This document shows positions 4,545 to 61,380 of a DNA stretch of 64,000 nucleotides, in pieces. Numbering within the stretch: the stretch's first letter is position 1; every line of letters begins with the position of its first letter. Source of the DNA: Acidobacteriota bacterium (GTDB taxonomy: Bacteria; Acidobacteriota; UBA4820; DSQY01); NCBI GenBank assembly GCA_040752915.1, contig JBFMHB010000001.1, positions 78,532-142,531 of the forward strand, read 5' to 3'. The notes under the pieces were generated by a model. The model saw only the letters and a program-made list of their open reading frames with translations. It had not been told where the DNA came from and searched no databases. A program made the translations under genes and the position numbers.

Positions 4545-5621
4545 ATGACCTTGCCCTGGTACAAGAACGTGCTCGGACTCAGGGGCCCCCAGTCGAAGCG
4601 GCGGGGACGCTACGAACTCCCCGACGAGGCCCGCCTGAGCGAGATCCGCAAACACCCGGTCGGCCCCGAGGGAAAGGAAGCCCCCGACCTGAAGGCCCGC
4701 GCGGGAGAAGCCCCGCCTGGACCCATCGCAGGCCTTCGGGTGGAGGTCCGCACGGCCGCGGGAATGGAGCGCCTCCCCTTCCTGCTCCGCGTTCTGGAGG
4801 AGGAGGGGGCTAGGGCGACCTTCTACATGGGGTTTGGCCCGTGCCGGGCCCACCTCGCGGCGCGCGCCTTTCTGGCCGAGCCTTCCCTCGCTTGGAGGGC
4901 CTGGCGGAGCGGCCTTGTCGGCGCCTACGGGTGGAGGACCGCGGGATCGGGGCTCTTCTCGGCTCCTCCCCTGGCCCTTTCGGCCAGAATCAACGCGGTC
5001 GCCGTGCGGGACGCGGGCCACGAACCTGGCGCCATGCCGTGGGACCACTTTCTGTGGCAGGCGCGGGTCGCGGACATGGATCCGGAGCGGATCGCGCTGG
5101 AACTTGCCCGCGGGGAGGAGGCCTTCATCCAGGTCTTCGGCGCCCCGCCCCACACCATCGGCGCACCCGGATGGATGTGCAGCGACGAAAGCCTCCGGCT
5201 CCAGGACCGCCTTCATCTCCTTTTCGGATCGGACTGCCGGGGCACGGACCCGTTCCTGCCCGTCATCCAGGCTCGGGTGCTGCAGACACCGCAGGTGCCG
5301 GTCACGCTGCCCACGGCGCGGGAGCTCCTTCTGTCGGAGGGCATGGCGCCGGCCTCGGCCTTCGCGCGCCTGGCGGACGAGGCCGCCTCCTCAACCTGGC
5401 CCGTTTACGGAGCCTCCGCCGAACTGGAAGGTGGCCCTTATCTCGAGGACTTTCGCGGCTTTCTCTCCCGCCTTCGGGCCTCCGGAAGGACGGTGGTCGC
5501 TCTTCGCCAGGTTCTCGCGGGGCGCCTGGCCGACGGATCCCCCCTTCCCCGGTGCACCATGGCCTACGGTTGCATGGAAGGTCGCCCCGGGGTCGTGTCC
5601 CTCCAACTCCTCGAGGTGTAG
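4545..5621 (+). CDS. ArnD-like polysaccharide deacetylase (4-deoxy-4-formamido-L-arabinose-phosphoundecaprenol deformylase family); start codon uncertain
   Basis: Blocks shared with E. coli ArnD as I recall it: GLRVEVRT (GLRIDVDT), ATFYMGFGP (ASIFFSVGP), YGWRTAGSG (YGWDILLAG), PWDHFLWQAR (AWDHHAWQAR), APGWMCSDE (AAGWRADQ), FGSDCRGTDPF (YNSDCRGAMPF), QVPVTLPT (QIPVTLPT), ELEGG (EVEG). Confidence 0.65.
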   Translation: MTLPWYKNVLGLRGPQSKRRGRYELPDEARLSEIRKHPVGPEGKEAPDLKARAGEAPPGPIAGLRVEVRTAAGMERLPFLLRVLEEEGARATFYMGFGPCRAHLAARAFLAEPSLAWRAWRSGLVGAYGWRTAGSGLFSAPPLALSARINAVAVRDAGHEPGAMPWDHFLWQARVADMDPERIALELARGEEAFIQVFGAPPHTIGAPGWMCSDESLRLQDRLHLLFGSDCRGTDPFLPVIQARVLQTPQVPVTLPTARELLLSEGMAPASAFARLADEAASSTWPVYGASAELEGGPYLEDFRGFLSRLRASGRTVVALRQVLAGRLADGSPLPRCTMAYGCMEGRPGVVSLQLLEV

Positions 5622-5700
5622 CTGAACGCGCGGACATGGCACGGTCCGGAGACTCCTTCTCCGGCCCAAGGGGCGGTAGGACCGCCGGACGGGGCTGTCG

Positions 5701-8700
5701 ATGGCTGAACCCATGAAAGCAGGACTCCGAGGATACTTCAGAGGGTCACGCCTCCCCGCCTCCTTGGCGGGCCTTGCGGCAGGCGTCTTCCTCCTCGGAG
5801 CCTGCGGGCTCCTATGGGTCGGGTACCTGTCTCCTCGCGTGGAACGGCACCACGCCCAGACCCCACCCGCCTCGCCGGAACACCCGCCGGAGGGAGCCAG
5901 GCTCGAGCGTGCGGCCTTCCTCGCCATCGGATTTCTCCTCTCGGTGACGGGAGGACTCGCCGCGTACCTTCTCGTGAACCGCCAGCGAAGGCTGGAGGCG
6001 CACATCGCGATGGCCGTGCGCGACGCCCGAGAACTGAACGAGAAGCTGGAGGCTCAGCTCGCGGCACGGCGCGAGATGGAGGCGCGCTTCACGGCGTTCA
6101 TGAACCACCTGCCCGGAATGGCCTTCATCCGGGACCCTCAGGGCCGCTATGTTTGGACCAGCGGTGGCTGGTCCCGGGAAACGGGCCTTTCTTCGGAGGA
6201 GGTCTCGGGGCTCTCACCTTCGGCGGTCTTTCCGGACGTGGTGGCCCGGGACTTCCTCGATCTCGACCGGAGGGTCCTGGAGGAGCGCAGGGTGCTCCGA
6301 CAGGAGTTCGCCCTCCCGGGACCGGACGGGTACAAGTTCTGGACGGAGACCGTCTTTCCCATCCCCGTGCCCGGCGGAACCGGACCCCTCGTGGGCGGGA
6401 TCGCTCTCGACATCACGGTCCTCAAGCGAGCCCAGACCGAGCTGAAGGAATCCGAGCGCCGCCACCGCGAGCTCTTCGAAGGAAGCCTCGCGGGCGTCTT
6501 CTCCACCACCGTCGAAGGGGAGATCCTCGCCTGCAACGACGCCCTGGCACGCATGTTCGGCTTGTCCTCGGCGGAGGAAGTAAAAAAGCACTCGGCCTGG
6601 GAAGGGTACTTCGACCTCGACGCGCGCCGGGCCTTCCTCGACGTTCTGCGCGCCTCCGGTTCCGTGGAAGGCCACGAAATGGCCGTCCGCAAGGTGGACG
6701 GCACCAACCTCTGGATCCTCGTGAGCGCCAAACTGGAAAGAGACGCGAGGGATCGCTTGGTCGTGTCCGGAACCGCGGTGGACATCACGGAGCGCAAGCG
6801 CGCCGAGAAGGCGCTTCAGGAATCCGAGGCGTGCTTTCAGGCTTTCCTGGCCCGGGTTCCCGGCGTTGTCTTCATTCGCGACGCGGACGGGCGTTACGTA
6901 TATGTGAACGAAGCCTGGGAGGTCCTGAGCGGACGGCGCGCCGAGGAGGTCCTGGGGAAGACGCCCGCGGACCTCTTCCCCAGTGAAGTGGCTGACCGAA
7001 TCCTCGAGGAGGACGCGCAGACCCTGGCGGGCCGGGTCCAGGTCTGGGAGGAGGAGCCCGAAGAGATCAACGGTCGAACCCGGTACTTCTTCTGCTCCAA
7101 ATTCCCGCTTCCCTGCGGCGAAGGACGCCCCCCGAGGGTGGCGGGCATCAGCATCGACATCACCGACCGCAAGGAGGCCCAGGAGGCCCTCCGCGCCTTC
7201 GTGGACCATATCCCGGGCCCCGCATTCCTCCGCGACGCCGAAGGAAGGTACGTCTACGTGAACGAGGCATGGGAGCGTCTCATGCACCTGGAGAGGTCAC
7301 AAGTATTGGGCAGGACTCCCAGGGACCTCTTCCCGCCCAGCCTGGCGGAACCGATCGAAGAAGAAGATCGAGACGCCCTCGCGGGCCGCCTCCTTGAATG
7401 GCAGGAGGAAGCCCAGGAATTCGATGGCGAGATCCGGTACTTCTCCTGCGCCAAATTTCCCCTCGGAGAGGTCCGCGGTGGAAACCCCCTCGTCGGCGGC
7501 ATTTCGGTGGATGTGACCGACCGGCGGCGGGCCCTGGACGCCCTCCGAGAATCGGAACGCTACTTCCGCGACCTCTTCGAGTGCGCCCACGACCCCATCT
7601 TGATCTTCGATCCCGACACGGAGGTCATCCTGGACGCGAACCAGCGCGCCGTCGAAGTCTACGGCTTCTCCAGGGAAGAGCTGGTGGGGCTTTCCCTGGA
7701 GACGATCACCCTGGACGTTCCTCGGGGGAAGGACGCCATCCGGCGGACCATGGCCGCGGGGGCCTATCTGGATTACCAGACGACGCACAGGCGAAAGGAC
7801 GGCCGTCTTCTGCACATCGAGGCCAACGCGGCGGTCATCTCCTTTCGGGGGCGTCCCGCCATCCTCTCCATCGCCCGGGACGTGACCCGCCGGCGCGAAG
7901 TCGAGCGGGCGCTGGCGGACTCGGAGAGGAGGTACCGCCTCCTCTTCGAAAGGAACCTGGCCGGGGTATACCGGGCGCGCCTGGATGGTTCCCTCATCGA
8001 GTGCAACCAGGCCTTTGCCCGCCTCTTCGGATTCGACTCACCGGAGGAAGCGGTGGCCGCCTCGAATCACCAGTTCACGGCCCGGAGGGAGGATTTCGAG
8101 GCCTTCCGGACGAGGCTCCTTCAGGACGGCGCCGTCACCGACCACGAAGTGCGGACTCGCCGCAAGGACGGCGCCCTCTTCCGCATCCTGGAAAACGCCG
8201 TCCTGGTGCGCGAGCCGGACCAGGAGCCCTACTTCGAGGGCACCCTCATCGACATTACGGGCCAGAGGCGGCGGGCGCAGCTGGAAGCACGCGCCCGGCA
8301 GCTCGAGGCCCTCGGCAAGATCGCCCAGGGACTCGCTCACGAGGTCCGGAATCCTCTCTTCGCCATCCAGGTGAACCTTTCGGCCCTCCGTCGGCTCATC
8401 CAGGCCTCGCCCGAAGGCGAACGGCACGCGGATCTGATGAACGAGAACGTCCAGCGTCTGGACCGCCTCATGCGGACCATGATGGAGTTGAGCCTCTCGG
8501 TGGCGCCCGAGGAGATTGAATCCATTTCCCTCGGCCCCCTCGTGCAACAGGCCGTCCAGGACGCGCGCTCCCAGGAACCCGAGAAGGCCGCGCGGGTGCA
8601 CGTCCACGTGGATCTCCCCCAACCTTCCCCTGCCTTCTGGGCGGCACCCAAGAAGGTCGCCCTGGCCCTATCCCACGTGGTCGCCAATGCGTTGGCCGCC

Positions 8701-19155: not shown

Positions 19156-20085
19156 TCACGCCCTTTTCCTCTGGTATACGTCCGTGCTGAGGTACTTGAG
19201 GCCCGAGTCGCACAGGAGGGTCACAACTCGGGAGCCCGGGCCGAGTCTTCGAGCCACACGGAGGGCCGCTACAACGTTGGCTCCCGAGGAGGTGCCCGCG
19301 AAGAGGCCCTCCTCCCGCGCCAGGCGACGCGCCATTTCCTTGGCCTCGGCCGTCGCCACGGGAACGATTTCGTCTACGAGAGAGGGCTCCCACAGCGGCG
19401 GCGTGAAGCCGATGCCCACCCCTTCGATCTTGTGGGGCCCCGGCGGGCCGCCGGACAGGACCGCCGATTCGGCGGGCTCCACGGCGGCGACCCGCAAATT
19501 CGCCTTGCGCGCCTTCAGCGCCGTCGCCACCCCCCGCGAGGAGGCCCCGGTGCCCACGCTTTGGACGAAGGCATCCACCTTCCCATTCGTTTGCTCCCAG
19601 ATCTCTTCTCCCAGCGAAACGTAGCCCGAAACGCTGTCCAGGTTGGTCAATTGGTCCGTCCAGTAGGTGTTCGGCTCTCCGCTCAAGGCCCGCGCCGCTT
19701 CGATCATGTCCAGGATCAATTTCTTCGTCGTGAGCCCGCCCTCGCTCGGCACGAGGGTCAGTTCCGCCCCGAGGGCCGCCATGTGGTCCAGCTTCTCTGC
19801 GCTGAAGGCATCGGAGGTTACGATTCGAAGTCGGTAGCCTTTCGCCGCGCACACCAGGGCGAGGGACGCCCCCGTACTGCCGCCCGTGTACTCCACGACC
19901 GTTCCTCCCGCCCTTAGACGCCCGTCCGCCTCGGCCCGCTCGATCACCGCACGGGCCATGCGGTCCTTCATGCTCCCCGTGGGGTTCTCCCACTCCAGCT
20001 TCACCCAGATTTCCCCACAGCCTTCGGGCACGACTTTCCGGAGCCCCACCAGGGACGTGTTCCCGATGGAATCCAGCACGCTCAT
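19156..20085 (-). CDS. Cysteine synthase family PLP-dependent enzyme (CysK/CysM-like), paralog 1
   Basis: Start set at MSVLDSIGNTSLVGL (reverse ATG 20085..20083), not the ORF-track start 20427 whose first 114 residues are Arg/Pro-rich. PLP-lysine block NPTGSMKDR, Gly loop GTGAS, and the C-terminal TSSGAN block. Confidence 0.85.
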   Translation of the reverse strand: MSVLDSIGNTSLVGLRKVVPEGCGEIWVKLEWENPTGSMKDRMARAVIERAEADGRLRAGGTVVEYTGGSTGASLALVCAAKGYRLRIVTSDAFSAEKLDHMAALGAELTLVPSEGGLTTKKLILDMIEAARALSGEPNTYWTDQLTNLDSVSGYVSLGEEIWEQTNGKVDAFVQSVGTGASSRGVATALKARKANLRVAAVEPAESAVLSGGPPGPHKIEGVGIGFTPPLWEPSLVDEIVPVATAEAKEMARRLAREEGLFAGTSSGANVVAALRVARRLGPGSRVVTLLCDSGLKYLSTDVYQRKRA

Positions 20086-20417
20086 CGCCACCTCCCTCCC
20101 GCCGGTCCATTCCACCACGCGGCGCGTAAACGCCTCAAGCCCGAATGGGAAGACGAAGGGCCGGCCCAGTCTCGCTCCGGGGAAGGCTGTCATCGCGTCC
20201 CATGAGGCGGGTCGTTTGGGAAGGCGGCGCGTGGGGCGCAACAGGCCCCCTCCAGGCCGGAGGAGAGCGCCGCCGCGAAGGGGGGGCTTCCACCGAGCCC
20301 GCCACCGGGATGACCCTCGGGAAACGGCTCGCCGGTCCGTTGGACGCGACCGCTCCGGCCTGCCCGCTCCGTTGAAAACCGAACACGCCTGGGGCATACT
20401 GGGCCGCGGGAGTCGGG

Positions 20418-21071
20418 ATGGCGACAACTCCGGAACTGCGGTACCCCTATCTGGCCGTGGAAGGCCCCATCGGGGTCGGCAAGACGACTCTCGCGCGTCT
20501 CCTGGCCCGCCGCCTGGGCGCCACCCTCCTTCTCGAGGATGTGCAGAACCCCTTCCTTTCGGATTTTTATTCCGGCAAGAAGGGCTCCGCCTTTCAGTGC
20601 CAGCTGTTCTTCCTCCTGACCCGGTACCAGCAGCAGCAGCACCTCGTCCAGCGCAGTCTCTTCGACTCCCGAATGGTGGCGGACTATCTTCCCCGCAAGG
20701 ACAAGATCTTCGCGTACCTGAACCTCGACGACTCAGAGCTGGTCCTGTACGAGAAGCTTTACGGCCTCCTGATGGAGAACCTCCCCAAGCCCGAGGCCGT
20801 CATCTACCTGCAGGCCACCACCCCCACGCTCCAGAAACGCATCCGCGCCCGGTCGCGCGACTTCGAAAAACGCATTTCGGACGAGTACATCGAAGAACTC
20901 AACCGCGCGTACAACCACTTCTTTTTTCACTACCGGGACACGCCCCTCTTGATTGTGAACACGAATGATGTAGATTTTGAGAGGGATCCCTCGGAGCTGG
21001 ATCACCTGATCGCCCAGGTGAACCGGTTGGAGAGGGAGGTCCTCTTTTACGCTCCGCCCGCATTCCGATAG
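20418..21071 (+). CDS. Deoxynucleoside kinase (dNK family)
   Basis: P-loop GPIGVGKTT, LLEDVQNPFL, and the ERS/DRY-like motif region; 217 aa, typical of dAK/dGK/dCK family members. Confidence 0.85.
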   Translation: MATTPELRYPYLAVEGPIGVGKTTLARLLARRLGATLLLEDVQNPFLSDFYSGKKGSAFQCQLFFLLTRYQQQQHLVQRSLFDSRMVADYLPRKDKIFAYLNLDDSELVLYEKLYGLLMENLPKPEAVIYLQATTPTLQKRIRARSRDFEKRISDEYIEELNRAYNHFFFHYRDTPLLIVNTNDVDFERDPSELDHLIAQVNRLEREVLFYAPPAFR

Positions 21072-39837: not shown

Positions 39838-40952
39838 GCCTCGGAGCTGTTCCCCTCCAAGGCGACTACTCCCAGCTCGGCCTCCCCGAGATCCTGGACT
39901 TTCTCAAGACCACCGGGAAGACCGGCGTCCTCCTCGTCCGGAACGGGACCGTGACGAAGACCCTTCACTTCAAGAACGGCGTCGTCACCTTCGCCACCTC
40001 CAATGTGCCCGAAGAACGCTTCGGGGACATGCTCCTGCGCCAAGGCCGGATCAGCCAGGCCCAATTCGACGAGGCCAGCCGCCACGTGACCCGAGGCAAG
40101 CGGCTGGGCAAGATTCTCGTGGAAATGAAAGCGCTCACCCCCAAGGACCTCTGGAACGAGGTCCGGCGCCAGGTGCAGGAGATCGCCTTTTCCATCCTCC
40201 GTTGGGATTCGGGGTCGTTCCAGTTTTTCGAAGGGGAGGAGAAGGCGGGCGAGAACATCACGACGGCCATTTCCGTCCCGGAGCTTCTCCTGGAAGGTCT
40301 CCGACGCATCGAGGACCCGGCTCTTTTCGAACGCTACATGCCCAACAAGGACGTGGTCTTCGAGCGGGTGCTTCCGGCCCACCGCCCCCAGGGCCTCCAC
40401 TTCGAGGAATACGAGAAGCACGTCTTCCGCCTGGTGGACGGGGCACGCAGCGTCCAGGAAGTGTGCGACCTGAGCGAAATCGGGGAGTTCGAGACGCTCA
40501 AGACACTGTATATCTTCTTCTCCATCGGGTTCCTCCACGTCAAGGGCCGGAAGGACCGGTTCGAGGAGGAGCGCCGCGAGTTGAAAGAACTGGGCGGCCT
40601 CATCCGCAATTACAACGAAATGTTCTCCTTCCTGTACCACTACCTTCTGCGTGAAGTCGGGCCCATCGCGGAGAACATCCTGGAGAAGTACCTCGGACGC
40701 CTCAAGACCGTTCAACCGGAGGTTTTCGGGAGAGTCACCATCCGGAGCAACGGATCCCTCTCCGAGGAACGGCTGATCGAGAACCTGCGGGCCCTTCAAG
40801 GGGATCGCCAGGCCCTCCTGGTGCAGTCCCTCAACGAGTTCCTCTACAGCGTGCTCCTGGCCATTCGAAGGACCCTCGGGCCGGACCACGAGACCCGGGT
40901 CCTGGAGACCCTCCGCCACACGCGAAAAGACCTTTTCCGTGAGCCCTCCTGA
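39834..40952 (+). CDS. DUF4388-domain protein
   Basis: ATGA overlap with lepB. N-terminal DUF4388-like block GDYSQLGLPEILDFLKTTGKTGVLLVRNGTVTKTLHFKNGVVTFATSN, followed by ~300 aa of alpha-helical sequence with no enzymatic motif. Confidence 0.6.
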   Translation: MSLGAVPLQGDYSQLGLPEILDFLKTTGKTGVLLVRNGTVTKTLHFKNGVVTFATSNVPEERFGDMLLRQGRISQAQFDEASRHVTRGKRLGKILVEMKALTPKDLWNEVRRQVQEIAFSILRWDSGSFQFFEGEEKAGENITTAISVPELLLEGLRRIEDPALFERYMPNKDVVFERVLPAHRPQGLHFEEYEKHVFRLVDGARSVQEVCDLSEIGEFETLKTLYIFFSIGFLHVKGRKDRFEEERRELKELGGLIRNYNEMFSFLYHYLLREVGPIAENILEKYLGRLKTVQPEVFGRVTIRSNGSLSEERLIENLRALQGDRQALLVQSLNEFLYSVLLAIRRTLGPDHETRVLETLRHTRKDLFREPS

Positions 40953-41904
40953 CGGCGCCCTCTTCCCGGAGGGCCCTCTCCTCGCCTTCGTCGGTCCCAC
41001 CGCCACGGGCAAGACCCGCCTGGCGGTGGAAGCGGCGCTCCTCCTCGGGGGAGAGATCGTCTCCTGCGATTCGATGGCCGTGTACAAGGGCTTCGACATC
41101 GGGACGGACAAGCCCTCCCCAGCGGAGCGCCGGGGGGTCCCCCACCACCTCATCGACGTCGCCGAGCCGGGGAGCTTCTACTCCGCGGGCTCGTTCCGGG
41201 CGGACGCGCTGAAGGCCCTTTTGGACATCTGGTCCCGGGGGCGGACGGCCATCCTCGTGGGTGGAACGGGCCTCTACTACCGGTCCCTAACGCGCGGGCT
41301 CGTCTCCGCGCCAGGACGGCACGGAGAAATAAGGGAAAGGCTCAGCCGCCGCGCCCTGGCGCGGGGCCCCGAAGGACTGCACCGGATCCTTTCCCGGCTG
41401 GACCCCGACCGCGCCCGCGAGGTGGGCCCCCGCGACACCCTGCGGATCGTACGGGCGCTCGAGGTGCGACTGCTGACCGGGAGGCCCTTTTCCAGGTGGA
41501 TCCGGCAGGACCCGGCCCAAAAAGGAGTCACCCCGGGGCTCACGGTGGGTTTGACGGCACCCAAGCCCTTCCTCTACCATAGAATCGAGCGCCGGGTCGA
41601 GGAGATGATGGCCGCGGGCCTGCTGGATGAAGTCCGGCGGCTGAGGGAAGCGGGCCACCTTTCCGGACCCGCCTCCAAGGCCATCGGCTACGGGGAATTG
41701 GCGTCCTTCCTCGAAGGTTCCTTGGACCTGGAGGAGGCGGTCCGGCGAATCAAGCAGCGGACCCGGAACCTGGCCAAGCGCCAGCAAGCGTGGTTCAAGA
41801 AAGAAGAAGGAATTCATTGGTTCGATATCCAAGAGGAGGAATGGCGCGATGATGCCCTCGAACTCATCCAGAGATGGCGCGAAAAAGCCGGCGCCCAACC
41901 GTGA
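40939..41904 (+). CDS. miaA: tRNA dimethylallyltransferase
   Basis: P-loop GPTATGKT, SCDSMAVYKGFDIGTDKP, GGTGLYYRSL. Confidence 0.9.
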   Translation: MSPPDGALFPEGPLLAFVGPTATGKTRLAVEAALLLGGEIVSCDSMAVYKGFDIGTDKPSPAERRGVPHHLIDVAEPGSFYSAGSFRADALKALLDIWSRGRTAILVGGTGLYYRSLTRGLVSAPGRHGEIRERLSRRALARGPEGLHRILSRLDPDRAREVGPRDTLRIVRALEVRLLTGRPFSRWIRQDPAQKGVTPGLTVGLTAPKPFLYHRIERRVEEMMAAGLLDEVRRLREAGHLSGPASKAIGYGELASFLEGSLDLEEAVRRIKQRTRNLAKRQQAWFKKEEGIHWFDIQEEEWRDDALELIQRWREKAGAQP

Positions 41905-42202
41905 AATCAACATCCAGAACCAGATCCTCAATTTCGTCCGCAAGGATCGTTCCCTCATCACGATCTTCCTCGTCAGCGGGAAGAAGTTCGTCGGTCAGGT
42001 CCTTGGCTTCGACCGCTACACGATCCACATCCGCGGGCGCGACTACGACCAGATCGTCTTCAAGCACGCCATCACCAACGTGTCGGTTCCCCGCCACGTG
42101 ATGCAGAAGATGACCGGTGGAGAGGGCGACGAGCCCATGGACGGGGCCCTTCCCTCCTCGGAGGGGGAGGACCCGATTCCCGAGGACGACGAGTCCCAAT
42201 GA
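41849..42202 (+). CDS. hfq: RNA chaperone Hfq with extended acidic C-terminal tail
   Basis: Sm1 ITIFLVSGKKFVGQVLGFD, Sm2 FKHAI. Classic miaA-hfq synteny. The start overlaps the miaA 3' end, so the exact start is uncertain. Confidence 0.8.
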   Translation: MMPSNSSRDGAKKPAPNREINIQNQILNFVRKDRSLITIFLVSGKKFVGQVLGFDRYTIHIRGRDYDQIVFKHAITNVSVPRHVMQKMTGGEGDEPMDGALPSSEGEDPIPEDDESQ

Positions 42203-42284: not shown

Positions 42285-42950
42285 TTGGACCAGACGGAAC
42301 TGCTGAAACGGATCACCTGCTTCAGCGGGCTGGATGAAGCCCATCTGGAGGAGGTTCTCCGCTTTTCGGAACGTCGCACCTTCAGCCGCGGGGAAGTCCT
42401 GTTCGAGTTGGGCGATCCGGGCGAGGCGCTTTACATCCTCCTCTCGGGGCGGGTCAAGTGTTACATCAACGGCAAGGACGGACGTCAGGTGACGCTCGCA
42501 TTCCTGGGTCCCGGAGAACTGGTCGGCGAACTGGCCCTGTTCGATCCGGCGGAACGCCGCTCGGCATCCGTCCAGGCGGTGGAAGAGACGGACTGCGTGT
42601 GGCTTTCCCGGGAACGCTTCCTGGAGGCCCTCGCCTCCAATCCTTCCCTTGCCCTCTCCGTCATCCGGACCCTTTCCCAGAGGCTTCGGGAAACCTCCCA
42701 GCGCGTGGGCAGCCTGGTTCTGATGGACACCTTCGGCCGCCTCGCGCGCTTCATCACAGAACTGGCGGAGCGCGAAGGGCGCCAGCTGGCCGACGGCTCC
42801 ATCCTGATCACGCGGCCGACCCAGGAGGAGATCGCCCATTTCATCGGAACCAGCCGCGAGACCGTGAACCGCCTGCTGAAGGAACTGGAGACCCAGGGGT
42901 TCTTGCGCCTTCTCGGCCGGAAGATCCTCCTGTTCAAGACCCCCTCCTGA
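42285..42950 (+). CDS. Crp/Fnr family transcriptional regulator (cNMP-binding domain + HTH)
   Basis: TTG start. cNMP-binding beta-roll (GEVLFELGDPGEALYILLSGRVK...GPGELVGELAL) and C-terminal HTH TQEEIAHFIGTSRETVNRLLKEL. Confidence 0.85.
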   Translation: MDQTELLKRITCFSGLDEAHLEEVLRFSERRTFSRGEVLFELGDPGEALYILLSGRVKCYINGKDGRQVTLAFLGPGELVGELALFDPAERRSASVQAVEETDCVWLSRERFLEALASNPSLALSVIRTLSQRLRETSQRVGSLVLMDTFGRLARFITELAEREGRQLADGSILITRPTQEEIAHFIGTSRETVNRLLKELETQGFLRLLGRKILLFKTPS

Positions 42951-43000
42951 GGAGGACCCAAAGCCCCCGCGTGGTACACTCCCACCGCATGGAGGGATGC

Positions 43001-44044
43001 ATGAACGACGCGTCCTGGAAGAGGGTGCTCCTCGTTGCCTGCACCGTCACCTTCGCCGCTCTGGGCGGTGTGGACCCCGAAGCCCCCTATCGAGAAACCG
43101 TTTCCGGAGGGAGCGTGGATTGGGACGCGGGGTGGATCCGGGCCGAAGCGGAGGTCCCCCTTCCTGCCGCGGGACCTTCCACCGCCCAGGCCCGTGTGGA
43201 TGCCCGGAGAGTCGCCGTTCTCAAAGCCCAGGCCGCGGCGCTTCGAATCGCCATGCGCCTTCCTGTCGACTCCGAGCGTCGGCTCGAATCCTTTGAGGCG
43301 CTCCGGACCCGGGTCCGGGGCATCGTCTCGGGAGGCCGGGTCGTTTCGGAGGGGGACCGGGACGGACGCTACGTTCTGACCCTCGAGGTGCCCATCAACG
43401 GCGTCCAGGGCCTCGCTTCGGAGGTGGCCCTGGTCACTCTCCCCGCGCCCCCGCCCGAACCCGCGCCCCCCCGGAGAACGCCCTCGGACCCGCCTGCTCC
43501 GCGGGCCGAGCCGACTCCCCCGCCGAGTCGCGAGCTCTCCTCCTTCGCCACGGTCACCGTGGATGCCCGGGAGGCGGGAGTGAGGCCCGCCCTGCAGCCG
43601 AGGATTCTGGATCCCGCCGGGAGGGAAGTCTACGGCATCAAGACCATCAAACCCCTGCGCGCCCGGGAAGGGATGCTCGCCCGCTACGTAACCCGGCCGG
43701 CCGCCTCCCAGGGGCGCTTCCGCCTCACGGACCCGCACCTCTCCCCCGCCCTCCCCCTCGCCCTCGCCGCCCTGCCCCGGATCGAAAGGGCGCAGCGGCC
43801 GCCCTCCACCCGTCCGCGGGGGGAGGAGGCGGCCATCGAGGTGAAGGCAATGGGAGCCTCCGGCTCCCTCGGGGCCGACATCCTCGTCACCGAGGAGGAG
43901 GCCCGCCGCCTGCGCGAGGCCGAAGCCGCAACGGGGGCCCTCTCGGAGGGGCGGGTCCGAATCGTGGTTCGTCCCGACGTGGGCGGAGTGGAGGGTCGCG
44001 GCCTCCGCCCGAAACCCTCGGACCTCTGGCTCGCCGAACGCTGA
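43001..44044 (+). CDS. Lipoprotein with N-terminal LPP20/FlgP-like domain
   Basis: Lipobox LLVAC; RBS GGAGGGA. LPP20-like block GWIRAEAEVP...AQARVDARRVAVLKAQAAALRIAM...RVRGIVSGGRVVSEGDRDGRYVLTLEV, a Pro-rich linker, then a C-terminal region of unknown fold. Confidence 0.5.
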   Translation: MNDASWKRVLLVACTVTFAALGGVDPEAPYRETVSGGSVDWDAGWIRAEAEVPLPAAGPSTAQARVDARRVAVLKAQAAALRIAMRLPVDSERRLESFEALRTRVRGIVSGGRVVSEGDRDGRYVLTLEVPINGVQGLASEVALVTLPAPPPEPAPPRRTPSDPPAPRAEPTPPPSRELSSFATVTVDAREAGVRPALQPRILDPAGREVYGIKTIKPLRAREGMLARYVTRPAASQGRFRLTDPHLSPALPLALAALPRIERAQRPPSTRPRGEEAAIEVKAMGASGSLGADILVTEEEARRLREAEAATGALSEGRVRIVVRPDVGGVEGRGLRPKPSDLWLAER

Positions 44045-44054
44045 AGGGGGTACC

Positions 44055-45917
44055 GTGGCGCTGGCCTGGCCCCGCTTTCGCCGGGGCGGACTCATTCTCG
44101 GCGGGATTCTGACCGTCCTCGGGGCGCTCCCCCTCGCTCTGGGGATCGCCTCGCCCGGCGAGGGAAGGCTGTACGATCTCCTGCTCCGAACGCGGAGGCA
44201 CCCTCCCTCCGGCCGGGTGGTGCTCGTTGCGGTGGACGATGCCGCGTTTCAGGCCTTGGGGGGACGCAATCCCAGCCGCGCCGACATCGCCGCTGTCGTG
44301 GATCGCCTCTGGGCTTCGGGCGCCGCCCTGGTGGCGCTGGATTTTTTGTTCCTCGAGCCAAGAACGGAAGCCGAAGACGCGCTCCTGGAAGGCGCTCTCG
44401 CGCGCGCGGATTGCCTCCTGGCCTGCAGCCCCGGCAACGGTCTCTATCCCTTGGACCGGTTTCGGCGCCAGGCCGTCGGACTCGGCTCCATCGACCTCCT
44501 CTCCGATCCGGACGGCATCTTCCGCAAAATCCCCGCTCCGTACGTGGAGGCGCAGGAGGGCCGATTCAAGATCCGGCACCCGCCTCTCGCCCTGGCAAGC
44601 GCTCTTCTTTACTGGTTTCCCGAGGGACCGCCGGAGGTGAGGCTGGAAGGGAACACCCTGCACCTGGGAGAGAGGCGGTTCGCCACCGATGGCACGGGAT
44701 GGTGGATCCCTTACCTCGGCGGTGAAGGAACCCTGCCGCGGATCCCCTTTCTGGAGGCGTTGAAGGGGTCAGGGCCCCTCCCCGCCTTGAAGGGCCGCAT
44801 CGTCCTCGTGGGTTCCGCCCGCCCCAGCCAGCACGACTTTTTCTCCGTCCCCCTCCCCAGGCTTGCGGACCCGGGACAGACCTCCCTTTCGAGCCACACC
44901 ATGGCGGGGGTCGAGGTCCATGGCCAGGCTCTGGAGGCCCTACTGGCCGGCCGGGAAATCGTACCCGTCCGCGGGCCATGGGCCTGGGCCCTTTTCGCCC
45001 TTCTGGCCGCCCTGGGCACGGTGCTCACATCCCTTGCCCTCCGGCCCGGCCCGGCCCTGGCCGTCTGGTTCCTGGTTTTCGCCTCCCTGGCGTGGGGCGC
45101 CATCGCCGCCGTGCGGGCGGGAAGGCCCCTTCCGATCTTGGGCCTGGCGCTTTGCGCGCTTCTCTTCGCGGGGGGGTCCTTCGCCTACCACCGGGCCCGC
45201 GACTACAGCGAGCGCCGGGCGGTGGAAGGCCTTTTCAGCCGGTACGTCTCGCCGAACATCGCCAGGACGCTCCTTCGGAACCCGGGTGTCGTCCAGCTCG
45301 GAGGCCGAAGGAAGGACCTGACCATTCTCTTTTCCGACATCCGCGGGTTCACGCGCCTCTCCGAAGACCTTCCGCCGGAGCGCGTCTGCCTCCTGCTCAG
45401 CGAGTACTTCAACGAGATGACGGAGGTTCTTTTCGCCTTCGACGGCACCCTGGACAAGTTCATCGGAGACGCAATCCTGGCCTTCTTCGGCGATCCCCTG
45501 ACGCAACCCGACCACCCCGCCCGCGCTCTGGCCTGCGCCGTCGCCATGCAGGAACGCGCCAGGGCCCTCCGGGAGCGGTTCTCCAGGGAGGGGAAACCGC
45601 CGCTGCACATCGGAATCGCCGTTACGTCGGGGCCCGTGGTGGTGGGGAACAACGGCTCCAGGAACAACTTCGCCTACACGGTGATCGGGGACACGGTGAA
45701 CCTGGCCTCCCGGCTCCAGGGCCTCGCCGTTTCCGACGACGTGATCGTGCCGGCCGGCTTGGCGGCCCGCATCCCCGAGTTGTACGAGACTTACGAGGTC
45801 GAACCCCTCGATCCGGTCCGGGTCAAGGGCAAGAGCGAAGAGATCCCCATCCTGCGCGTTCGGGGGAGGCGGTCCTCCGGCTCCGACCCGGCGCAGACGC
45901 ACGGAGGTGTTCCATGA
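44055..45917 (+). CDS. CHASE2-sensor adenylate/guanylate cyclase (class III nucleotidyl cyclase)
   Basis: N-terminal TM, a periplasmic CHASE2-like domain (VVLVAVDDAAF...ALDFLFLEP), three TM helices, then cyclase motifs LTILFSDIRGFTRLSE, KFIGDAILAFFGDP, VVVGNNGSRNNFAYTVIGDTVNLASRLQG. Confidence 0.85.
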   Translation: MALAWPRFRRGGLILGGILTVLGALPLALGIASPGEGRLYDLLLRTRRHPPSGRVVLVAVDDAAFQALGGRNPSRADIAAVVDRLWASGAALVALDFLFLEPRTEAEDALLEGALARADCLLACSPGNGLYPLDRFRRQAVGLGSIDLLSDPDGIFRKIPAPYVEAQEGRFKIRHPPLALASALLYWFPEGPPEVRLEGNTLHLGERRFATDGTGWWIPYLGGEGTLPRIPFLEALKGSGPLPALKGRIVLVGSARPSQHDFFSVPLPRLADPGQTSLSSHTMAGVEVHGQALEALLAGREIVPVRGPWAWALFALLAALGTVLTSLALRPGPALAVWFLVFASLAWGAIAAVRAGRPLPILGLALCALLFAGGSFAYHRARDYSERRAVEGLFSRYVSPNIARTLLRNPGVVQLGGRRKDLTILFSDIRGFTRLSEDLPPERVCLLLSEYFNEMTEVLFAFDGTLDKFIGDAILAFFGDPLTQPDHPARALACAVAMQERARALRERFSREGKPPLHIGIAVTSGPVVVGNNGSRNNFAYTVIGDTVNLASRLQGLAVSDDVIVPAGLAARIPELYETYEVEPLDPVRVKGKSEEIPILRVRGRRSSGSDPAQTHGGVP

Positions 45918-57487: not shown

Positions 57488-58441
57488 TCAGGGGGCGGCG
57501 GATTCCGGCTCCTCGTAGGGATAAAGCGGGGTGGAGAGATACCGTTCGCCGCTATCGCACACGACGCTCACGACGCGCTTCCCGGGCCCGAGCTCCCGGG
57601 CCACCCCGAGGGCGGCGTGAAGGATCGCCCCCGAGGAGATGCCCGCCAGGATGCCCTCTTCGAGTCCGAGGCGGCGGGCCGCCTCGAGGGCCTCGTCGAA
57701 CCCGACGCGCACGACCCGGTCCACCACCGAGGGGTCGTAGTTGTCCGGAACGAATCCGGCTCCGATTCCCTGGATCCGGTGCTTTCCTGGCTCTCCACCC
57801 GAGAGCACGGGCGAATCCGACGGTTCCACCGCCAGGACCATGACCGATGGCCCCAGGCTGGCCTTGAGCATTCTCCCGACGCCCGCCACCGTTCCACCCG
57901 TCCCGACCCCCGCCACGAAGGCGTCCAGTTTTCCCCCCGTGTCCCTCAGTACTTCCAGGGCCGTCGAGTTCCTGTGGATCCAGGGATTCGCCGGATTGTC
58001 GAACTGTGAGGGCACGAAGCACCCCGGCGTTTCGGAGGCGATGCGGAGGGCCACGGCGATGGCCCCCTTCATCCCCTTCTCTCCCGGAGTCAGAATCAGC
58101 CGGGCGCCGAAGGCCTGGAGCAGCCGCCTCCGTTCCAGACTCATGGTGTCCGGCATCACAAGGGTCAGCCGGTATCCCTTCTGCGCGGCCACCATGGCGA
58201 GACCGATCCCCGTGTTCCCGGAGGTCGGCTCGACGATGGACATCCCAGGCAGGAGGGTTCCCGCTTCCTCGGCGGCGGATATCATCGCGTGCGCGATGCG
58301 GTCCTTTACGCTGGCGCCGGGATTGAGGGATTCGAGTTTGACGCACACTTCGGCCATGTCCGCCGATGGAATCCGGTTCAGGCGCACGAGGGGCGTATCC
58401 CCTATGACCTGCGAGATGTTGTCGTAGATTCGTCCTCTCAT
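57488..58441 (-). CDS. cysK: Cysteine synthase A (O-acetylserine sulfhydrylase), paralog 2
   Basis: Start at MRGRIYDNISQVIGDTPLVRL (reverse ATG 58441..58439), with an ATGA overlap onto the nth stop. SVKDRIA PLP-lysine, PTSGNTGIGLA, GVGTGGT, and SSGA blocks. Confidence 0.9.
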   Translation of the reverse strand: MRGRIYDNISQVIGDTPLVRLNRIPSADMAEVCVKLESLNPGASVKDRIAHAMISAAEEAGTLLPGMSIVEPTSGNTGIGLAMVAAQKGYRLTLVMPDTMSLERRRLLQAFGARLILTPGEKGMKGAIAVALRIASETPGCFVPSQFDNPANPWIHRNSTALEVLRDTGGKLDAFVAGVGTGGTVAGVGRMLKASLGPSVMVLAVEPSDSPVLSGGEPGKHRIQGIGAGFVPDNYDPSVVDRVVRVGFDEALEAARRLGLEEGILAGISSGAILHAALGVARELGPGKRVVSVVCDSGERYLSTPLYPYEEPESAAP

Positions 58442-59163
58442 CTCTCTCGCTCCTGAGCCTCGGGACGGACCGCGCCCTCCCTGGCCCGCTCTCTCCCGAA
58501 GACAGGCCCGGCGGCAGGACGTTCCTGGCCGAGGCCGATTCGGGGACAATCGCTCATCAACAGGCATCCGCCGCACCTGGGCACCCGGGCCGTACAGATG
58601 GCCCGACCGTGCCGGATCAGCCGGTGGCCGAGGGCCGTCCATTCCCGCCTGGGAAACCGGGCCATGAGATCCGCCTCGATGGCTTCGGACCTTCGATGCG
58701 CCGTCAACCCGAGCCGCCTCGAAAGCCGCGCCACGTGCGTATCCACCACGAACCCCTCTTGGATTCCAAATCCCGTTCCCAGAACCACGTTGGCCGTCTT
58801 CCTGGCCACTCCGGGGAGCCGAAGCAGTTCTTCCATGGTCCCTGGCACCGCTCCTCCGTGCCTTTCGGCGATGAGGCGGCTGACCTGCCTCAGGAAACGG
58901 GCCTTGTTCCGGAAAAACCCCGTGGGACGAACGATCTCTTCCAGTTCCTGGGGCTCGGCCTCCGCCAGCTCCCCGGGTCCAGGCCATCTCCCGAACAGGG
59001 CCGGCGTGACCTGGTTCACACGCTCATCGCGGCATCGGGCCGACAGGATCGTCGCCACGAGGAGCTCAAAGGGCGTCCGGAAGGACAGGGTGCAGGATGC
59101 GTCCGGATAGAGAGCCCTCAAGCCTTCCGCGACGCGTTTGGCCCGTCCAGACTCCTCCCGCAT
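58438..59163 (-). CDS. nth: Endonuclease III (DNA glycosylase/AP lyase)
   Basis: HhH-GPD with LPGVARKTANVVL, catalytic K/D, and the C-terminal 4Fe-4S cluster loop CTARVPRCGGCLLMSDC. Confidence 0.9.
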   Translation of the reverse strand: MREESGRAKRVAEGLRALYPDASCTLSFRTPFELLVATILSARCRDERVNQVTPALFGRWPGPGELAEAEPQELEEIVRPTGFFRNKARFLRQVSRLIAERHGGAVPGTMEELLRLPGVARKTANVVLGTGFGIQEGFVVDTHVARLSRRLGLTAHRRSEAIEADLMARFPRREWTALGHRLIRHGRAICTARVPRCGGCLLMSDCPRIGLGQERPAAGPVFGRERAREGAVRPEAQERER

Positions 59164-59805
59164 GCCAACCCCCTTCCGGACCTCTCCGGAAAACGATGAC
59201 GGTAAAGGGAAAAACCGTCCCCTTCACCCGGCCTATTCCCGCAGGCGGCCGGACAAACCGGGTCCGGAGGAGGGTGGATCGCCCTTATAGGGTGCGTCCT
59301 TCCTTTTCGCCCGACGATCTTCCGGCGAACCCGCCGACCCCTTGAACCCGAATTTGGGTCGGACGTGCCCCCGGAAACCTACTAACCTGAAGCGGCCCGA
59401 TTCAAACGGCCCTGCGGGCGACCCTTTCCTGCGCCCAAGAGAACACCGACTCGGGCTGGTCTAGGAATGCGCCTCGACCGGGTGGACTCCCGGAATTCGA
59501 CTTATCTCACGCCACACTCGCCAAACATCTCAACAATGAGGTGATTTCGATATATAAAATATAGCCAGTAGCCAAGTTCCAACACCCGTTTCAGCGCACC
59601 CCAGACAAGGCCAAATGGGGGTTCTTTTCTTCCCACTGTGATGGTTGACCCGCAACCATTCTACTGTAGAAATTGGTGCCCAAGTCTGGAATGCTCTCTC
59701 CGGACCATTCGAAGAACCCAAAGGAACCCGGCGATCTCCGGTGTTTCTTCATGAGGTTTCCTTCAACGACCCAGGCGCTCTTGGTCCCCCTCCCCCTCCC
59801 TCCGC

Positions 59806-61380
59806 TCAGGGGCTCTCGATCTCCGCGGCGGGCGCGTCCAATCGTCTTCCCCCGAGTCTTGGCCAGGGCACGGCGGCCAGGAAAAGCAGAACCAGGGGCG
59901 CCACCAACCAGAGGGCCCCCACTTTCACCCAGAGAGTCTCCGTCTTCCTTGGGGCGACGATGCCCCAGAACGAAGCCGGTTCCCCCGGCGTGGCCGCGGA
60001 TTGCAGCCGGCCGCGGGGATCCACGATTCCGCTGATCCCGCCGTTGGCGCTCCGGATCAGGAACCGGTCCGTCTCCACGGCGCGGACGCGTTCCATGAGG
60101 AAATGCTGGGCGGGACCGGGGGTCCCTTCGTACCATGCATCGTTCGTGAGATTCACGAGAATCTCGCCCCCCTCCCTCACCTGCCTTCTCACTAGACCGG
60201 GGAAGATGGCCTCATAACAGATGGTTACGGAGGCCGCGCCGGCGGGAGTGGACAGGGGTCGGAGGGAGTCTCCTGGAACGAAGTCCCCCACCGCCTCCAC
60301 GAGGGGTCGGGCAAAGAAGAGAAGGCGGCGCAGCGGCACGTATTCCCCGAAGGGGACAAGGTGGGTCTTGGCGTAGCGACCGCCCTCCCCACCCTCCGGC
60401 GGCACCAGCACGGCGCCGTTCTGGAACCCCCCTGGACCCTTGAAGGTCGTACCGAGCAGGATGGGAGCGGACAGCTCCCGAGCAATGGAGGCCACCCCCG
60501 ATCGGTAGGCCTCGTCCCCGTCCCATGCCACGGGTGTGCAGGACTCGGGCCAGACGAGCAACCGCAGGCCGAACTTGCGGAAAGCGAGGCTCAGGGTCTC
60601 CAGCCTGGTCCAGGTGCGATCCGCCTCCTCGGGGTCCCATTTCTCATCCTGACGGATGTTCGGCTGAAGGTATCCGACGGCGAGGCGGGGCATGGGAGAC
60701 ACGGGGCGCCCGGCCTGGACGGTCCCCCAGGCGAAGGCGCCCCCATACAGGAGCACCGATAGAAGGACGCCCGCCAAGGTGGACGGGGCCCCGCGCTCCC
60801 GGATCCAGAGGGCCACGGCCGCGGCGCCCAGCACGGCCAGGAAGGAGAGGCCGATGACTCCGAGGAACCTGGCGTTCTGGAGCAAGGCGGAGTAGAGGCT
60901 GAGGGAATAGCCGGGGCCCCACCACGGAAACCCCGTGAGGAGATGGCCCCTCAGCCATTCCCAGACCACCCAAGCGCAGGGCGCGAGGAGAAGCGCTCCC
61001 TCTCCCCGGCGCTTCACGGCCCAGGCCACCGTTGCGTAGAAACCCGCCCAGTAAAGCCCGAGGAGCACGGACAGCCCCGCCACGAGGGGAATGGCCATCC
61101 ATGGAGCGATCCCCCCGTACCGGACCATGGTGGGAACGAGCCACCAGAGGGTGACGGCTTCGCAAAGGGCTCCGCCCGCCCACCCCCACGACGCCGCCCG
61201 GCGGGGTGTCTCTTCCGGCAGAAAGAGAAGGCCCGGAACGAAGGCGGCCACCGCGAGGATGCCCACGCCGTACGGAGGGAGCGAAAGACCCCACAGGACG
61301 GCCCCCGCGACCAGGGCCAGGGGGAACCTCAACCGATCTGAGCCAAGCCGCTCGAAAAGACGCCCGACCGTTCCAGCCAC
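59806..61380 (-). CDS. lnt: Apolipoprotein N-acyltransferase
   Basis: N-terminal 6-7 TM helices. A C-terminal CN-hydrolase domain with catalytic E (LVWPES), K (YAKTHLVPFGEYVP), and C (VTICYE). Confidence 0.85.
   Translation of the reverse strand: MAGTVGRLFERLGSDRLRFPLALVAGAVLWGLSLPPYGVGILAVAAFVPGLLFLPEETPRRAASWGWAGGALCEAVTLWWLVPTMVRYGGIAPWMAIPLVAGLSVLLGLYWAGFYATVAWAVKRRGEGALLLAPCAWVVWEWLRGHLLTGFPWWGPGYSLSLYSALLQNARFLGVIGLSFLAVLGAAAVALWIRERGAPSTLAGVLLSVLLYGGAFAWGTVQAGRPVSPMPRLAVGYLQPNIRQDEKWDPEEADRTWTRLETLSLAFRKFGLRLLVWPESCTPVAWDGDEAYRSGVASIARELSAPILLGTTFKGPGGFQNGAVLVPPEGGEGGRYAKTHLVPFGEYVPLRRLLFFARPLVEAVGDFVPGDSLRPLSTPAGAASVTICYEAIFPGLVRRQVREGGEILVNLTNDAWYEGTPGPAQHFLMERVRAVETDRFLIRSANGGISGIVDPRGRLQSAATPGEPASFWGIVAPRKTETLWVKVGALWLVAPLVLLFLAAVPWPRLGGRRLDAPAAEIESP

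Follow-up and report, generated by a model that had tools for sequence, protein, structure and literature searches.

RESULTS

An AT-rich gap between lnt and nth

The window (the whole 64-kb stretch of DNA analysed here) carries a 642-nt gap between the genes lnt and nth. Its best explanation, which we hold at slightly less than even confidence, is an inherited non-coding spacer in a recG-lnt-(X)-nth-cysK gene string, with a cis-acting module at the site of a lost gene, here called X. That the gap is a functional cis-regulatory spacer is, in our judgement, about an even chance or a little better. The conserved part of the gap is a short motif, present in three phased copies, and not the AT-rich core.

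The gap occupies exactly positions 59164..59805. As the initial annotation had stated, both flanking genes are on the minus strand, which the ORF listing and the Pfam searches bear out. Upstream lies lnt (apolipoprotein N-acyltransferase; 59806..61380, −; Pfam LNT_N and CN_hydrolase). Downstream lie nth (58438..59163, −; Pfam HhH-GPD) and cysK (57488..58441, −; Pfam PALP), the latter with a 4-nt overlap with the nth stop; nth-cysK (57488..59163, −) are most likely the downstream genes on which the spacer would act. A second PALP-family enzyme besides cysK is encoded by a 423-aa ORF at 19156..20427 (−).

The GC content of the window is 66.9%, where ~68% had been given for the genome. The AT-rich core itself was borne out: 100-nt windows over 59500..59750 drop to 44-52% GC, and the 60-nt minimum, 33%, falls within 59494..59598 and is the lowest of the 64-kb window. 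GC contents of 42% or less were found at just two other sites in the window, each inside a long ORF read as coding. A low-GC patch at 41783..41853 corresponds to the coding overlap zone of a miaA-like ORF (40939..41904) and an hfq-like ORF directly after it (41849..42202, +), both identified by reading the translation. The description of the gap as the longest non-coding stretch is plausible, as a rough check with a crude gene caller found no longer one in the window and the other long uncovered stretches were mostly Pfam-positive or strongly codon-biased ORFs, with 42458..44095 as a possible exception. In that stretch, ~530-aa ORFs are open on both strands, neither with a Pfam match.

The smaller elements reported for the gap are all in place. 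The hairpin CCGGAC-aaaccgg-GTCCGG is at 59249..59267, and the 63-aa minus-strand ORF without coding character is at 59530..59721, with a TTG start only and no Pfam match. The two strings said to resemble RNase P RNA, CAAGGCCAAATGGGGGTTC (59606..59624) and GAACCCGGC, are both present as well.

The gap is inherited with its gene neighbourhood

Nine distinct related loci, all from metagenome assemblies of uncultured Acidobacteriota, were collected using Nth, Lnt, and CysK homologues. Nth, used to scan genome and metagenome collections, yielded a single syntenic relative; matches to the Lnt and CysK proteins supplied the useful ones. Three public assemblies have an identical gap, and identical contigs come from SRR29635778, SRR32167786, and SRR16893471. 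The order recG-lnt-gap is kept in all the relatives with at least 72% Lnt identity, and in 9/9 of the distinct ones lnt is followed by a gap of 447-663 nt. The gap is followed by nth-cysK in the window, L004, and L058/L070 (639-663 nt) and by cysK alone in L059, L062, L064, L068, L069, and L073 (447-456 nt).

Four-fold degenerate sites are 50-55% identical inside the subclade of the window and 41-45% identical between the two subclades. This is near saturation, so features still recognisable between the subclades would be under selection. The AT-rich dip is found at the homologous position in almost all nine distinct relatives, being weak in L064, and since it recurs there despite near-saturated synonymous sites, the gap is confirmed as a real observation, beyond chance. 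In the cysK-adjacent relatives most of the gap is ~60% identical, against 0.57-0.71 at four-fold sites, i.e., it diverges at approximately the synonymous rate. One close pair is available, L068/L073, with a four-fold identity of 85-90% and ~92% identical lnt genes.

Between the window and L004 and L058, Lnt is 83-89% identical at the amino acid level and CysK 88-93%, while Nth is 64-74% identical; moreover, nth is lost altogether in one subclade. Given the lower identity of Nth compared to the flanking Lnt and CysK, together with this loss, nth is fast-evolving or dispensable here.

Low-stringency blastn found no phage or plasmid similarity in the gap, and throughout the clade the region has been inherited in place; both results speak against the foreign DNA remnant that the initial annotation had considered. 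The conservation in relatives that it had proposed to examine was found: the gap is present in every relative of the clade, and its sequence is conserved at the motifs.

The gap is non-coding and is not a known repeat or replication element

The gap is non-coding. Its ORFs gave no Pfam match, and its GC content hardly varies with codon position (0.55-0.63 in every frame), unlike that of lnt (0.70/0.54/0.82). No start codon in a shared frame was found in L004, L058, L059, and L069; frames open in one relative have no start codon, or are shifted, in others. The frame also changes between the motifs, as most of their spacings (85-87 and 79-82 nt) are not divisible by 3. A small protein or a Cys-rich leader peptide, considered for the TGC TGC found in the motif of three relatives, was rejected on the absence of starts and the inconsistency of the frames, and the Cys codons are missing in the window, L058, and L069.

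Replication and recombination sites were also searched for. No GC-skew switch pointing to oriC or dif was found, the cumulative skew falling steadily over the window, and no XerCD-like palindrome was seen in the gap by eye. A CRISPR array, for which nearly identical repeats of 23 nt or more and strain-variable spacers would be expected, was rejected: the repeats of the gap are ~15 nt long, degenerate, and different between copies, L068 and L073 share 88-100% identity in the spacers, and a repeat search of the window found no CRISPR-like repeat family.

A 14-nt inverted repeat, I8 (59344..59357, GAACCCGAATTTGG; 59611..59624, CCAAATGGGGGTTC), brackets 253 nt including the AT-rich core. It was not seen in L004 or L058 and is therefore probably due to chance.

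Three motif copies with fixed spacing

The motif is 15 nt long and AT-rich, with the core CTRYWGYAG and the consensus AAACTGCTGAAGAAA. Three copies are present, and perhaps a fourth, all three on the lnt strand. The first one, m0 (AACCTCATGAAGAAA; 59744..59758, −), scores 14.1 bits with the leave-one-out PWM and lies 86 nt upstream of m1; in the relatives with cysK directly after the gap, it overlaps or abuts the lnt stop codon, which is the left boundary of the module. The second, m1 (TTTCTACAGTAGAAT; 59658..59672, −; PWM 12.7/17.0 bits), is the best-conserved element of the gap and contains a perfect 13-nt palindrome, TTCTACAGTAGAA (59659..59671), unique in the window at 0-1 mismatch. CTACWGTAG sits 136-137 nt past the lnt stop in the window, L004, and L058. 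The third, m2 (AAACGGGTGTTGGAA; 59577..59591, −), is found 81 nt after m1, and the AT-rich core begins directly after it. This copy is degenerate in the window (6.9 bits leave-one-out, 11.1 bits with the full model); its homologues in the relatives score 9.5-17.8 bits at +79 to +82 nt.

The motif comparison rests on nine independent sequences. With the leave-one-out 15-nt PWM, every relative shows the copies at spacings of 84-87 and 79-82 nt, also L073 and L067, whose sequences had no part in the PWM training. Scores of at least 10 bits are reached at just 9/128,000 positions of the window, and a paired-match test over 877,000 positions recovered essentially only these loci, including the two without training use. 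An nhmmer search and a PWM-pair scan, covering 64 kb of this genome and ~400 kb from related loci, found one array per locus. On this single copy in the DNA covered, and on a terminal inverted repeat that L004 and L058 do not show, a dispersed repeat of the REP/MITE type was rejected.

With 27-53% GC, the motif copies form AT-rich islands, and their cross-clade identity is 0.49-0.61. The spacers between them, with 57-78% GC, have a cross-clade identity of 0.28-0.32, which is the random level, while their length is held. Four-fold sites between the clades (0.41-0.45) fall below the motifs and above the spacers. By this comparison, the motifs appear to be under selection, with the spacing held to ±1-2 nt while the spacer sequences randomise. 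In the close pair L068 and L073, the first two units are 88-100% identical. Furthermore, the first motif copy overlaps the lnt stop in differing reading frames, or follows the stop, so the motif is a nucleic-acid signal and not a peptide.

The motif core is a dyad, CTG-N3-CAG or CTAC-N-GTAG, extended to 13-17 nt in the window and in L004. Dyad symmetry, fixed spacing, and conservation in relatives are together what a phased operator array would show. This introduces an alternative at the DNA level: the dyad motifs would be operators for a dimeric or tetrameric regulator bridging sites ~80-86 bp apart, with the AT tract as an easily bent or melted segment, or as a weak internal promoter for nth-cysK. 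Besides the dyad and a spacing kept between randomised spacers, this alternative draws on the motifs being AT-rich islands in GC-rich DNA and on the position of the array upstream of nth-cysK. Against it, 86 and 80 bp are not whole helical turns, and no regulator gene lies beside the locus in the window or in the relatives. With the promoter and strand-bias results given below, we regard it as possible, if on the unlikely side.

The palindrome gave no case for RNA pairing: the states observed (A-T 4, G-C 2, G-T 3, A-C 0) were not significantly different from independent change. Directly after m1 lies an 8-bp hairpin with an ATGGTTG/CAACCAT core (59640..59660, −), which is lineage-specific and not conserved in L004 and L058; the corresponding hairpin of L068 is disrupted in L073 by an uncompensated change.

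The AT-rich core keeps its composition and not its sequence

The composition of the AT-rich core is kept in nearly all the relatives, and its sequence is not. Between L068 and L073 the core is 48-65% identical, against 85-90% at four-fold sites, composition alone being kept. In position terms, the cores differ at about half their positions (L068 2590..2690 vs L073 3200..3300), and the L073 core is nearer in look to the more distant L059 than to L068. This suggests a local replacement or hypermutation in L068.

The initial annotation had also offered an AT-rich promoter or regulatory region for nth-cysK. A regulatory region is the best fit, but no convincing sigma-70 promoter was found in the AT core: a consensus scan gave 0 sites, and the best PWM scores were ~4-11 bits, at positions shifting among the relatives, compared to 12-18 bits for the cysK promoters of relatives. 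As for the core as a regulatory part, the conserved elements are the three phased motifs upstream of it and not the core sequence. Both the lack of a conserved sigma-70-like promoter in the core and the divergence of the core sequence between close relatives weigh against control at the DNA level.

Other promoter types were rejected. For sigma-54, the GG/GC spacing is wrong by eye in nearly all the sequences, which again weighs against the DNA-level alternative. A sigma-32 -10 box, CCCCATTT, is present in the window only. An invertible promoter was discarded, as a flanked segment of ~50 nt would be too short for it and neither of the L068 and L073 cores is an inversion of the other.

The relatives with cysK alone have a canonical TTGACA-N17-TAATCT promoter ~40 nt before cysK, and their AT-rich dip lies ~220 nt upstream of it. 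Since these relatives have their own promoter before cysK, the module is not needed there as the only promoter.

In all the relatives, the sense strand of the gap has a G/C ratio of 1.23-1.86 and 55-64% purines; the flanking genes have 1.05-1.27 and 47-54%. This G and purine bias persists despite the turnover of the gap sequence, which points to selection on a sense transcript. Such a strong bias would be unexpected for a purely DNA-level site.

No structured RNA in the gap

We searched positions 58900..60100 on both strands with cmscan against 4,227 families of Rfam 15 at E ≤ 10, the check proposed in the initial annotation. No RNase P or other bacterial family was found in the gap, and the only matches were three meaningless eukaryotic ones. 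Over the whole window at the Rfam gathering score, only two tRNAs were found, both far from the gap; other Rfam matches in the window were chance matches inside coding regions. No tRNA or tmRNA was found in the gap, and the homologous gaps of seven relatives gave no match to Rfam.

Structure predictions agree with these searches. The MFE z-scores are ~0 for 100-nt windows of eight homologous gaps, both strands included, and the exact unit folds gave z from −2.5 to +1.0 for unit B. For the six relatives that could be aligned, RNAalifold returned −12 kcal/mol across 468 columns; the covariation term was +0.09, i.e., no covariation support. With no Rfam match, stability at chance level, and no covariation, the structured ncRNA first proposed for the gap does not hold.

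The degenerate RNase P-like relic fares no better, with no match at E ≤ 10. The plus strand folds worse than its shuffles at 59560..59640 and 59590..59640 (z = +0.81 and +0.91), and the RNase P-like strings are not conserved. The string CAAGGCCAAATGGGGGTTC (59606..59624, +) is found in neither L004 nor L058, and its resemblance to RNase P is due to chance.

An independent small RNA or structured ncRNA gene, a degenerate RNase P-like RNA included, would find some encouragement in the hfq-like ORF seen by inspection in the window and in a weak plus-strand promoter-like sequence, TCAACA-N17-TATAAA (59530..59558), followed by a hairpin and T-run (59597..59633). However, this promoter/terminator pair is not conserved in L004 or L058, the terminator scan found no intrinsic terminator, and the plus-strand candidate at 59560..59640 was rejected as neither stable nor conserved. 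Considering also the Rfam, z-score, and covariation results above, we give such a gene hardly any credence, and its RNase P version is already largely refuted. The same scan found no intrinsic terminator for lnt in the gap; its sole site is inside lnt, at 59975..59989.

The only unusually stable part of the region is the nth leader (59136..59265, −), outside the AT core, with a predicted MFE of −64.3 kcal/mol (z = −3.0) and z of −3.3 and −3.6 in 100-nt windows. It includes the CCGGAC/GTCCGG stem and a 9-bp hairpin, UUUUCCGGA/UCCGGAAGG, which covers part of the nth Shine-Dalgarno; the hairpin that L004 has in this position is a different one. The predicted fold may exert translational or attenuation control on nth-cysK. 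Within the leader, GGGAATAGGCCGGGT (59226..59240, −), ~65 nt before the nth start, is conserved with L004 (3908..3925). Its GGAAT-N17-CGGTT arrangement could possibly be an ECF-sigma-type promoter for nth-cysK; in L058 the spacer at this site is longer.

Gene X and the origin of the gap

In the outgroup L072 (Lnt identity of 64%), lnt-X-nth-cysK are packed, with no gap. Gene X of L072 (939..4352) encodes 1,137 aa and matches no Pfam or NCBIfam family. In another outgroup, L067 (Lnt identity of 60%), X was matched at 4548..7551 in three pieces, with two frame changes needed, which come from sequencing errors or an early pseudogene; the C-terminal piece has a weak AsmA match. Between the pieces matching X residues 1-258 and 426-595, L067 carries the three-motif array, with spacings of 87 and 81, and the AT dip. 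A frame is open across the array, yet there is no codon periodicity, and the array-bearing segment is 497 nt long vs 504 nt of the X segment that it replaces.

The best explanation is that the gap marks the loss of the large envelope-type gene X. On the sequences compared, the simplest history would be that the module was already within or between parts of X and was retained as X, and nth in one subclade, was lost. Since a frame is open across the L067 array, the motifs could have a coding origin. A gap that is itself a pseudogene of the AsmA-like X was rejected: with X and the L067 ORF as tblastn queries, no residual similarity was found in any gap (E ≥ 0.1), and the L067 motif array is the only link.

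The same outgroups bear on whether the gap is a non-functional scar of the X deletion, with the AT core as unconstrained DNA decaying under AT-biased mutation. The presence of X at the gap position in the outgroups would fit it, as would an AT core far more diverged than four-fold sites in one close pair, spacers at random-level identity, and cysK-adjacent gaps changing mostly at about the synonymous rate, and the AT core could by itself be neutral DNA drifting to AT. A scar, however, would hardly explain why three motif copies and their spacing survive near-saturating divergence, why the spacers remain GC-rich and G-rich on one strand with no decay to AT, or why every lineage keeps the same fragment, and there is no detectable residual X similarity. 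We consider it distinctly improbable.

A small MITE- or REP-like element, mobile or dispersed, that inserted in X, disrupted it, and left a remnant as the X fragments were deleted would account for the L067 array lying between two homologous halves of X, with an array part devoid of codon periodicity, for the unusual composition, and for the inverted repeat I8 flanking the core in the window. Conversely, that repeat is not conserved in L004 or L058, and the near-equal lengths of the L067 segment and of the X segment replaced imply no simple insertion. Moreover, the array is single-copy in the 64 kb of this genome and the ~400 kb from related loci, has no phage or plasmid match, and is stable at one locus over long divergence. 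This makes the mobile element very unlikely.

DISCUSSION

A spacer that may set the lnt to nth-cysK ratio

In the preferred reading, the inherited spacer with its cis-acting module, the module would consist of three (perhaps four) motif copies ~86/80 nt apart, with G-rich spacers free to change between them, and would end with an AT-rich tract of ~50-100 nt after the third copy. The spacer would be part of the lnt transcript, in the sense direction. Rho prefers to load on untranslated RNA that is rich in C and poor in G; given this preference, the G-rich spacer would let transcription run from lnt into nth-cysK, the G>C bias shielding the spacer, which is not translated, from Rho-dependent termination. 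Accessible sites for binding or cutting of the transcript could then be offered by the A/U-rich motif islands and the core, and this processing or binding would uncouple lnt from nth-cysK, setting the upstream/downstream expression ratio.

We propose an RNA-level mechanism specifically only in a tentative way. The predictions gave no stable or covarying RNA structure, which would count against it, and the motif dyad and fixed spacing would suit a DNA-binding protein at least as well. The DNA-level reading is nearly as likely as the RNA-level one. A bolder version, which we judge unlikely, is that the motifs and the AT tract form an undescribed self-contained cis element, either an RNA processing or protein-docking platform or a DNA scaffold for a bridging regulator, which was already present within the AsmA-like X or between its halves and was kept as X was deleted around it, on account of gating the passage from lnt to nth-cysK. 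The fixed 86/80-nt phasing is the one unexplained feature of an otherwise ordinary-looking regulatory spacer.

The analysis removes a false lead, as no RNase P-like or other structured RNA was found in the gap, and indicates how relatives, once compared, can account for an unusual AT-rich island in a GC-rich genome. What selection appears to have kept are evenly spaced motifs and a base-composition pattern, and not the sequence or the fold. If the module does gate the passage from lnt to nth-cysK, it would be a small, testable case of regulatory DNA or RNA outliving gene loss, in a phylum, Acidobacteriota, that to our knowledge has almost no experimental genetics.

Comparison with known systems

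Bacterial RNase P RNA (RF00010/RF00011) shares with the gap only the two short strings that resemble parts of its 3' half. Unlike it, the gap has no covariance-model match at E ≤ 10, lacks the P4 element according to the initial annotation, and has a predicted stability at chance level, with strings not conserved in the relatives.

CsrB and RsmZ are protein-sponge RNAs with repeated short single-stranded motifs (GGA). The gap likewise repeats a short motif between GC-rich segments on one strand. However, its copies number only three or four, at intervals of ~80 nt, and are not GGA motifs; no promoter or terminator delimits a transcript, and there is no Rfam match.

Looping operators are found at 92 bp for lac O1-O3 and 113 bp for gal OE-OI. 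As in these regions, short dyad sites recur in the gap at a constant distance (~80-110 bp), and the sequence between them is free. In contrast, the flanks of its motifs are asymmetric, all the copies have the same orientation, and the sites are candidate operators for a putative regulator; the gap also has a strong strand bias and no promoter beside the sites.

The REP/BIME intercistronic elements, e.g., the REP of E. coli malE-malF, are non-coding, begin at a stop codon or just past it, have GC-rich, hairpin-prone segments, and lie in a same-direction gene string. REPs are dispersed in hundreds of copies as stable palindromes, and they are credited with setting the relative expression of the upstream and downstream cistrons. 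The module of the gap is similarly non-coding, begins at or just after a stop codon, has GC-rich, hairpin-prone segments, lies between same-direction genes, and may likewise set their relative expression. It differs in that only one copy was found across the 64-kb window and the ~400 kb from related loci, in having hairpins that are neither unusually stable nor conserved, and in that its conserved parts are AT-rich motifs and not hairpins. The finding is a modest one: the module resembles known intercistronic control regions, and nothing in it demands a new category.
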